64,000 nt of DNA from Nitrosopumilus sp. (GTDB taxonomy: Archaea; Thermoproteota; Nitrososphaeria; Nitrososphaerales; Nitrosopumilaceae), in the NCBI GenBank assembly GCA_965205425.1, contig CBDBGZ010000009.1:224001-288000 (forward strand), in the 5' to 3' direction. Below the pieces are notes generated by a model. It was not told where the DNA came from. It searched no databases and saw only the letters and a list, made by a program, of their open reading frames with translations. This document shows positions 26,708 to 42,903 of this stretch, one piece after another. Numbering within the stretch: position 1 is the first letter of the stretch; the number at the start of each line of letters is the position of its first letter. The position numbers and the translations under genes were made by a program.

Positions 26708-26986
26708 ATGAAAAAACTAAACAAAGAAAATATATCAAAAATAAAAAATGTTTCAGGATATTACAAAATTTTCAACAAAAATAGAAAATTGGAATATGTA
26801 GGGGTATCTAAAGTATTACGTCATAGGTTACAATCATACTATCAAAAAGACGATTTCACAGTAAATAAAACTAAAAGGTCTCTTAGACCACACGCAAAAA
26901 ATTTCACTGTAGCATATATGGGCATTAATCAGGCTAGAAGACTTGAAAAAGAAATGAAAAAAAACACGCCACATAATAAATTATGA
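26708..26986 (+). CDS. Stand-alone GIY-YIG nuclease domain protein
   Basis: SGYY..EYVGVSKVLRHRLQSY..LEKEM. Confidence 0.8.
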   Translation: MKKLNKENISKIKNVSGYYKIFNKNRKLEYVGVSKVLRHRLQSYYQKDDFTVNKTKRSLRPHAKNFTVAYMGINQARRLEKEMKKNTPHNKL

Positions 26987-30187: not shown

Positions 30188-30349
30188 TCAAGATATTGAA
30201 ACTTTGCCTGATTTTTCTATGGTAAATGTTACAGTATCTGGAATGTTAAGGAATTGATCTAAAGGTTTTGGTAATGTCATCTTGACATCTTTTCCAACTC
30301 GGTTAACACTTACTGTAAATTTTGTTGCACCTTCTTTCCATTTTGGCAT
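30188..30349 (-). CDS. AbrB/SpoVT-like small DNA-binding protein (53 aa)
   Basis: Manual translation MPKWKEGATKFTVSVNRVGKDVKMTLPKPLDQFLNIPDTVTFTIEKSGKVSIS. Confidence 0.7.
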   Translation of the reverse strand: MPKWKEGATKFTVSVNRVGKDVKMTLPKPLDQFLNIPDTVTFTIEKSGKVSIS

Positions 30350-30375: not shown

Positions 30376-30417
30376 ATATTCTACCTAATACATAACGTTA
30401 ACATATTCTACCTAATA
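30376..30417. promoter_or_regulatory. 15-bp direct repeat ATATTCTACCTAATA flanking palindrome TAACGTTA; candidate operator
   Basis: Copies at 30376-90 and 30403-17 between the divergent AbrB-like gene and tRNA. Confidence 0.5.
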
Positions 30418-30429
30418 ATTAATATTTGT

Positions 30430-30500
30430 GGGCCAGTAATTCGAAGGTCGAATCTCTAGTCGTCAACTAGAAGGCTCGGGTTCGATTCCCGACTGGTCCA
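30430..30500 (+). tRNA. Atypical tRNA-Asp(GTC)
   Basis: GGGCCAG/CTGGTCC acceptor, ATTC/GAAT D stem, TCTAG-TCGTCAA-CTAGA anticodon arm (C33), TCGGG-TTCGATT-CCCGA T arm. Confidence 0.8.
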
Positions 30501-30539
30501 CGTAATGTTTATTTAGAAATGATATGTAGAATAATTAGT

Positions 30540-30880
30540 TGACGACTAGATGTTAGTTCGCCTTTGAACTAGCCTTTTTTCTATTTTCTGAAAATTTTAG
30601 AGGGGTTTAACATCTAGGCATAATTTCAAAAAATCATTACACCATTGAGTTTTTGTGCGTAAGTAAATTTTGTGACAATATCGTATTGTGCCATCGGGCT
30701 GAAATGAGGTTTGATTGTTCCATTTACGAACAAAAGCTAAACCCGCCCTGAATTTTGGGAATTGTAAAAAATTCACATCATGCCTGATGTGAATACAATA
30801 ATTGAGGGGGTGAATATTTACGCATAAGTTTTTTCCAATTTTACATATTTGATAGGGGGTTTAGCTTTTAGGCACAAATT
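30540..30880 (+). ncRNA. Candidate structured non-coding RNA
   Basis: Several 7-14 bp helices, one crossing; G-U pairs favour the + strand; no ORF in the track. Confidence 0.5.
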
Positions 30881-30931
30881 TGGTCATTAACAAATTTTAT
30901 TAATTCATCATGTAATAATAAATTAGAAACA

Positions 30932-31019
30932 CGTCAGGAATGGGATTCGAACCCATGAAACCGATGTACTCAGCAAAGAGATTTTCAATCTCTCGGTATT
31001 ACCACTAACCGATCCTGAC
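30932..31019 (-). tRNA. Atypical type II tRNA: GAA anticodon, long variable arm, G73
   Basis: GTCAGGA/TCCTGAC acceptor, AGAGA-TTGAAAA-TCTCT, variable stem GCTGA/TCGGT, ATGGG-TTCGAAT-CCCAT; TTAAATA box ~25 nt upstream. Confidence 0.8.
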
Positions 31020-31267
31020 GAGTTTTCTTCTAAAAATTCCTATTTAAGAATTGGTTCTGATGTATTCAAGTGAATAAAATCTTAGAATATTCAACCTTTA
31101 AAAAATAGAAATTTGTATTATTATTACGGTTCCGTTGGTGTAATGCTGACTATGAGACTTGGAAACAAGAGCTCAGGGATCGACTTTATCTTTCAACATT
31201 TCAATATATGAAAAAATAACTAATATTGTAAAATTTCATAAAACCTCTATTTCTCATTATTCTCACA

Positions 31268-42828: not shown

Positions 42829-42903
42829 GCTCCTATAGTGTAGTCCGGTTAAGCATTTTGGCTTCTCAAGCCAAAGACTCGGGTTCAAATCCCGATGGGA
42901 GCA
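42829..42903 (+). tRNA. tRNA-Glu(CTC)
   Basis: GCTCCTA/TGGGAGC acceptor, TTGGC-TTCTCAA-GCCAA anticodon arm, TTCAAAT T loop. Confidence 0.95.

Follow-up and report, generated by a model that had tools for sequence, protein, structure and literature searches.

The window, by which we mean the whole analysed stretch of 64,000 nucleotides (G000:C9:224001-288000), belongs to a Nitrosopumilus-type genome of 2.2 Mb, named G000 here. It is cellular DNA in an island rich in insertion sequences, with abundant transposase pieces around the segment 30540-30880, and not a phage tRNA cluster. DNA of the stretch was also present in contigs of four public runs from three studies, one of which is possibly the run of the source sample; no RNA run was listed as containing it. 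The segment is flanked by two tRNA genes recognized by ARAGORN and Rfam; both are real and atypical, in agreement with an earlier note on this DNA.

Two tRNA genes and a small RNA gene

The first tRNA (30430-30501, plus strand) carries the Asp anticodon GUC on a body with G1:C72, G2:C71, G3:U70 and A73, and has C at position 33. G3:U70 together with A73 is the alanine identity set, and the gene is called an Ala-type tRNA here; it is the proposed toxin of the locus. No TATA-like word was found upstream of it. A 53-aa ORF (30188-30349, minus strand), divergent from this tRNA and without a Pfam match, has homologues beside four tRNA modules including that of the window and is a possible regulator; a 20-bp direct repeat (30376-30395 and 30403-30422) lies between the ORF and the tRNA. 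Besides its ordinary tRNA set, G000 has seven Ala-type tRNAs with GUC, GAA or AAG anticodons. An ordinary tRNA-Asp is kept at C9:482364, and an intact archaeal AlaRS is encoded.

The main feature of the locus, absent from the note and found by a repeat scan, is the stretch 30536-30550, which matches the anticodon arm of this tRNA (30455-30469) in inverse orientation without a mismatch over 15 nt. It is the seed of a predicted small RNA gene on the plus strand, whose parts follow the tRNA 3' end in the order TATA-like box (30508-30515), seed (30536-30550), 8-bp hairpin (30552-30573) and U-tract (30575-30580). The predicted RNA of about 45 nt (30533-30580, with an inferred start at 30533-30536) is complementary to nt 1-41 of the tRNA and is the proposed antitoxin. 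Its duplex with these nucleotides has an energy of -44.5 kcal/mol, and the mean over 43 modules is -43.7. The best partner of the seed among all tRNAs of G000 was the adjacent tRNA (-24.8), with only -10.7 for the host tRNA-Asp. The hairpin with its U-tract is an imperfect antisense of the D arm and of the acceptor 5' strand, and is probably also a terminator; 42 of 45 modules have such a tract after their hairpin. The small RNA gene is located either downstream of its tRNA on the same strand (tandem, 19 cases) or upstream on the opposite strand (divergent, 29 cases; the counts include three viral modules), and a T-rich box occupies -30 to -24 from the seed in both layouts alike, which points to a promoter. 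In contigs of two runs (X2 and X5) the 5' half of the window tRNA is swapped for other DNA at window position 30468 with no damage to the small RNA gene, which may be one more orphan in related strains.

The second tRNA (about 30931-31020, minus strand) has a serine-type body (G73 and a long variable arm, as in the host tRNA-Ser) and the Phe anticodon GAA. It is a second candidate miscoding tRNA. A pattern search revealed 13 copies of this Ser-type GAA tRNA in 8 of 89 genomes, and no separate seed gene was found for it. A TATA-like box at 30896-30903 (plus strand) is directed toward its 3' end as a candidate cis-antisense promoter. Such a word lies 27-32 nt off the 3' end in 7 of the 13 copies, where its position is kept, against 2 of 41 ordinary tRNAs (Fisher p 3e-4, with copies that are not independent), which suggests a cis-antisense RNA to the Ser-type tRNA. 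The evidence is weaker than for the Ala type.

Other unusual genes were observed in this genome. Two further long-arm tRNAs have odd anticodons, C9:1042184-1042268 and C9:356124-356210, one with ACC and A73 (Leu-like) and one with CCU and G73 (Ser-like). Ordinary tRNA genes (Glu, Thr, Ser) are duplicated on different contigs (window 42829-42903 and C4:283174; C4:294183 and C8:54641; C5:45703 and C9:1173301); this may be true duplication, or may come from contamination, which amounts to 5% in the assembly. The island also contains a 92-aa stand-alone GIY-YIG domain gene (window 26708-26986).

The segment between the tRNAs and element B

The earlier note had drawn 30540-30880 as one pseudoknotted RNA. 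Its five helices do pair (10/10, 7/7, 13/13, 10/10 and 14/14, the last with 3 G-U), and the segment folds better than shuffled sequence, with z -3.55 on the plus and -2.81 on the minus strand. Homologue searches separated the segment into two parts, A and B, with different distributions, and it joins two unrelated things, the anti-tRNA gene (A) and a DNA element with repeated boxes (B). The strongest inner helix, 30732-44/30857-69, pairs one copy of a repeated 24-bp box with a second, inverted copy. In L022, the nearest homologue at 79% identity, 4 of 14 pairs of the pseudoknot helix, 3 of 7 of helix 30686/30871 and 2 of 10 of helix 30771/30785 are broken, and none of the four helices tested there has a two-sided change. 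The compensatory changes expected in conserved helices of a large structured RNA were thus absent from L022, and likewise from 22 canonical copies of element B, in which the 14 consensus pairs are the inverted boxes only and none has changed on both sides. The part 30582-30880 alone shows no strand preference (z -2.2 and -2.6).

Rfam gave no match in the segment at gathering score, the best E-value inside being 0.15, and only the tRNAs were matched. The models of GOLLD, ROOL, RNase P, group I intron and tmRNA were all unmatched there, and YrlA and permuted-tmRNA gave weak matches far under threshold. The note likewise saw no RNase P or group I intron consensus; its likening to large RNAs of the GOLLD or ROOL kind is not supported, and the RNA predicted at the 5' edge has only about 45 nt. 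We regard one large RNA over 30540-30880, possibly read through from the small RNA promoter, as very improbable. The helices and the folding score speak for it, and by eye a helix of the 30546/30608 type can be traced in L002 and L024 but not in L017; against it stand the uncompensated breaks, the nearly gap-free alignment of element B, the occurrence of the small RNA and of element B each without the other, and the U-tract at 30575. A novel RNA, as the note had it, is probably present, as a short gene at the 5' edge and not in a 340-nt pseudoknotted form. The note's alternative, a DNA element, comes closer for the remaining 280 bp or so, which show no sign of a single-stranded origin and are not a cdc6-linked origin.

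Element B (30599-30876) has four 24-bp boxes, at 30599 (+), 30725 (-), 30803 (+) and 30853 (+), with the consensus core GGGGTTTARC-NNN-TAGGCAY, and is a displaced paralogue of a single-copy element of the terminus region. The canonical element of the genus (25 loci) has three boxes in the order +, -, +; the spacings are 88 and 78 bp in 21 of the 22 complete loci, and the window retains the second of them (30725 to 30803). The 22 canonical copies align with a single 1-nt gap, and their folding is weak on both strands (mean z -1.1 and -1.4). A strict pattern found at most one canonical site per genome, in 30 of 89 genomes. The canonical copy lies 0.43-0.59 of the genome away from cdc6 in 15 of 15 near-complete genomes, which are syntenic and whose sizes are partly rounded. 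G000 has its canonical copy at C4:117558-117747 (canonical loci also in L006-L044), and island copies in the window, at C9:711143 and at C7:4616; a related copy in L024 adjoins a ParE-family gene. GC skew of G000 was uninformative. A role as cdc6 origin was rejected, as the cdc6 locus has ORB-like boxes of its own (ORB boxes as in the available part of PMC4010727) and no element-B box.

We consider it likely that element B works as DNA rather than as RNA; it is unrelated DNA of the same island as the tRNA module. From its sequence we read it as a putative protein-bound site of the terminus region, for dimer resolution, termination or segregation, and we read its variants as riding in mobile islands with toxin-antitoxin cargo. 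Element B resembles Xer/dif, the cer/psi accessory sites and pdif modules in its single copy opposite the origin, its rigid spacing and its extra copies in mobile islands beside toxin-antitoxin genes. The single copy in the terminus region, as in dif, is found for the canonical element and not for the window copy. No 11-6-11 core (inverted recombinase arms around a 6-bp spacer, as bound by XerA) was seen by eye in alignment A3. No description of element B was found in the literature searched, which comprised main texts and few subscription papers; the canonical element is apparently an undescribed candidate terminus or dif-type site across Nitrosopumilus.

Partner specificity and distribution of the modules

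In total, 47 archaeal Ala-type tRNAs were collected, with the anticodons GAA (17), GUC (13), AAG (11), AUC (2), CAG (2), GAU (1) and GAG (1). For the GAA copies, charging by PheRS is also possible. Their G3:U70 pair (47/47) is partly built into the search patterns. The stems of the cloverleaf are paired in 42-47 of 47 at each position, with many pair types, except 31:39, which is formed in 18 and open in 29. Several of the tRNAs have C33, and together with the open 31:39 this may mean weakened or crippled decoding. Only these seven triplets, of Asp, Phe, Leu and Ile, were seen, always followed by A37 (positions 35 and 37 were preset in the pattern, to A or U and to A), and the other arm positions vary; when G or C was allowed at 35, five module-rich genomes gave no new swapped tRNA. 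A table of anticodon conservation, grouped by the anticodon itself, is circular and carries no weight here. A TATA-like word is located upstream of the tRNA in 35 of 46.

A partner small RNA is present for 45 of the 47, and four further modules have one by eye. Part of the set came from a model that contained the partner, so the fair test is a pattern of the tRNA only. This gave 28 matches, in 12 of 301 Nitrosopumilaceae genomes (6 of 27 genera), and 27 of the 28 tRNAs have a cognate partner. The modules are spread patchily among insertion sequences, and a genome can have up to seven Ala-type modules, each with a private seed.

Each seed follows its own tRNA. For the 43 modules (the 47 less two partnerless and two near-identical), the own anticodon arm was the best target of the seed in 40 and within the top three in all 43, with a mean seed energy of -22.3 against -6.2 kcal/mol, which 0 of 20000 permutations reached. 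With windows defined by position, 26 of 29 tRNAs matched their own flank best (a result reached by 0 of 100000 permutations, also when these were confined to a single anticodon), as did 13 of 16 in a hold-out of five other genera, one of the misses being the partnerless L366. The modules are related, so that these permutation counts and the G-U test below overstate the case. The 3' part of the small RNA also follows its own tRNA, more weakly (-19.6 vs -14.0; best in 10 of 43). At nt 29-38, tRNA and partner agree with an identity of 0.94-1.0, which falls to 0.1-0.3 beyond nt 26-41. Among the transition mismatches, 20 are compatible with a G-U pair and 6 are not, beside 14 transversions (p 0.005, with rows that are not independent). 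L049, with a damaged acceptor strand, was left out of the anticodon, partner, layout, position-window, hold-out, identity and G-U counts. Some tRNA bodies are 96-98% identical and have different anticodon arms, each matched by its seed (L370/L378/L380; L025/L349). In all seven G000 cases the seed binds its own module tRNA over any host tRNA, narrowly in L017. Among background tRNA calls, 160 of 189 had at most 8 nt matching across the anticodon (among the matches listed, with a loose pattern).

Nine orphan small RNA genes were found whose cognate tRNA is truncated, damaged or absent (L315, L332, L339, L320, L029, L346, L046, L049 and upstream in L058), against two partnerless tRNAs, L345 and L366. 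The upstream DNA of these two is the least AT-rich of 46 (0.41 and 0.32), and all others have at least 0.50. The modules share no protein beyond transposases, the 129 neighbouring ORFs falling into 108 clusters.

Modules and orphan anti-tRNA genes are in places stacked in short arrays resembling immunity cassettes (L349:1547-1827, L046, L058). At L024/L320:1420-1520 a CRISPR-like repeat remnant stands directly 5' of an orphan anti-tRNA gene, which is followed by an element-B variant and then by a ParE-family toxin-antitoxin pair.

Outside the archaea we identified four modules, three distinct viral ones (L351/L399; L352/L355/L402; L386, beside integrase and terminase genes) and, among the matches listed with the loose pattern, one on a bacterial contig from a Pseudomonadales bin (L176, anticodon GCG). 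They have the same design, with promoter words of sigma-70 type by eye. Partners were present for 3 of 25 and 0 of 15 distinct viral Ala-type pattern matches. Hairpin-only patterns mostly caught bacterial terminators: none of 4 viral loci and only 1 of 17 from metagenomes was a true module; in 401 genomes the hairpin pattern found no modules in other genera. No modules were seen among 31 genomes from seven other families of the class, and the bacterial-type modules had no match in plasmids or cultured phages. Many phage 'AAG' matches were rejected as one odd tRNA family misframed by the pattern, whose relatives are called Ala-UGC, and are not modules. Apart from the modules, a large odd family of phage tRNAs (L389-L421, L452-L476) has G3:U70, poorly paired anticodon stems and UGC/GCA-type loops, and stands inside tRNA clusters without an antisense partner. 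Two viral tRNAs (L388, L390) combine G3:U70 with an amber (CUA) anticodon, and no partner was seen.

Proposed function and relation to known systems

Judged from sequence, the co-evolving pair of a putatively miscoding tRNA and its anti-tRNA is well supported. The Ala-type tRNA and the small RNA would rather probably form a toxin-antitoxin pair made only of RNA, in which a mistranslating tRNA is disarmed by the small RNA. We infer transcription, charging, miscoding, toxicity, neutralisation and a benefit by addiction or abortive defence. AlaRS, like LeuRS and SerRS, ignores the anticodon (PMC11028032, available part). The host AlaRS would read G3:U70 and charge the tRNA with alanine, which would then be placed at Asp codons, or at Phe, Leu or Ile codons by other copies, and damage the proteome. 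The separately transcribed RNA of about 45 nt would begin to pair at the anticodon loop by means of its 5' seed and then spread over nt 1-41, so that the tRNA or its precursor would unfold and could no longer be processed, charged or used. When the module is lost, or host transcription halts as in viral infection, the small RNA would decay and the stable tRNA would be set free. The excess of orphan small RNAs (nine) over orphan tRNAs (two) would be the decay pattern expected of toxin-antitoxin pairs.

The same anatomy could instead belong to a switch for tolerated and regulated low-level mistranslation, diversifying the proteome or blunting viral proteins under stress without addiction, in which the small RNA sets the level of miscoding. 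C33 and the open 31:39 could attenuate decoding accordingly, and the 53-aa ORF beside four modules is a candidate regulator. We think this unlikely, as up to seven modules with private seeds in one genome, the fast diversification of the arms and the orphan small RNAs fit conflict better than housekeeping, and only 12 of 301 genomes are involved. Also improbable is a tRNA that does not decode and serves as a charged decoy or address, for a nuclease, a sensor or a ribosome stall, with the small RNA as guide or mask. Irregular tRNAs that are charged and not used in translation are known among allo-tRNAs (PMC5389517, available part), which counts against miscoding, and 31:39 is unpaired in 29 of 47; but the anticodons keep to seven triplets, those of Asp, Phe, Leu and Ile codons, each followed by A37 in an otherwise variable arm, and a conserved partner protein is absent.

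We give hardly any credence to reversed roles, with the small RNA as a toxin sequestering a host tRNA and the tRNA-like gene as its sponge: sequestering or antisense pairing of tRNAs has precedents in CreT (PMC8501985) and in tRNA-tRNA pairing (10.64898/2026.09.02.748885; both in their available parts), but all seven G000 seeds favour their own module tRNA over the host tRNA of the same anticodon, and the small RNA genes persist alone in nine cases. Scarcely credible, too, is a functionless partial duplication of the tRNA by integration, kept alike by gene conversion, for although the partner resembles the whole tRNA 5' half and the concerted change of arm and seed requires some copying process, the partner has its own TATA box and U-tract, fixed spacing, antisense orientation and two layouts, its perfect match is confined to nt 29-38 with a G-U bias, and the bacterial versions have sigma-70 type promoter words by eye. 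Four other candidates were rejected: a T-box (the pairing is far longer than a specifier), a box C/D guide (C and D boxes were not seen), tRNA-primed reverse transcription (no reverse transcriptase among 81 neighbouring proteins) and an OMEGA or bridge RNA (no fixed transposase partner).

In type I systems of the hok/Sok type, the toxin transcript is bound by a small antisense RNA that has a promoter and a terminator of its own. The module resembles them in its cognate antisense RNA, predicted to be separate and specific to its own toxin transcript, in its patchy spread with mobile DNA and in its orphan antitoxins. It differs in that the target is a tRNA and not an mRNA, and that no toxic protein is encoded; no ORF is shared among modules that could be a small-protein toxin. 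In type VIII systems, of which SdsR-RyeA is an RNA-RNA example, both genes are non-coding RNAs, as here. CreTA, an archaeal example, is likewise made of two RNAs and targets translation. There, the mini-ORF CreT ties up a rare tRNA of the host, and the CreT promoter is repressed by CreA via Cascade (PMC8501985, available part). Unlike CreTA, the effector of the module is itself a tRNA and the antidote pairs directly with it. The partner derives from a tRNA 5' half and is not crRNA-like, no type I cas genes are linked, and none of the 81 neighbouring proteins scanned belonged to a Cas family.

Allo-tRNAs, with Ser or Ala identity and non-cognate anticodons, occur near toxin-antitoxin genes and transposons, and two amber variants killed E. 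coli; no antisense partner is reported in the available main texts (PMC5389517; PMC7609411). The module tRNAs share the non-cognate anticodons and, as judged by identity elements, the Ser or Ala identity. Allo-tRNAs are bacterial with 8/4 or 9/3 stems, whereas the 47 Ala-type tRNAs have 7-bp acceptor and 5-bp T stems (7/5); in the Ser-type copies a C(-1):G73 pair could add to the acceptor, by eye. Natural tRNAs that miscode on purpose are the Streptomyces tRNA-ProA, with ProRSx, and the Candida tRNA-Ser(CAG), in which an altered position 33 lowers decoding. We know of no dedicated antisense partner for either, and in contrast to them the module tRNAs would rely on the housekeeping AlaRS. The pairing described between two ordinary E. 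coli tRNAs does not involve a dedicated gene (10.64898/2026.09.02.748885, available part). The searched literature, with few subscription papers and without supplements, held no report of a tRNA/anti-tRNA module, and the pair appears to be undescribed.

If the reading as a toxin-antitoxin pair is true, the module would be such a system with a tRNA as toxin, and a natural gene that silences one tRNA by base pairing; neither was found in the literature searched. If toxicity is confirmed, it would formally be of type VIII, which is defined only by both parts being RNA, with a mechanism unlike that of its members. The pair is less than 200 bp long and orthogonal between copies, and might serve as a compact switch for controlled mistranslation. 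Annotation files the Ala-type genes as ordinary tRNA-Asp, -Phe or -Leu. It is an evenly balanced possibility that the modules represent a widespread protein-free class, selfish or antiviral, in which a code-rewriting tRNA poison is held by a co-evolving anti-tRNA antidote and the anticodon arm is a hypervariable lock, occurring in archaea as well as, under bacterial promoters, in bacteria and phages, with tandem, divergent and cis-antisense layouts. The modules would offer an explanation, open to test, for the persistence in genomes of 'extra' tRNAs whose identity and anticodon disagree, which the work on allo-tRNAs had left unanswered. Separately, element B would add an undescribed candidate terminus site for the dominant marine ammonia oxidisers.
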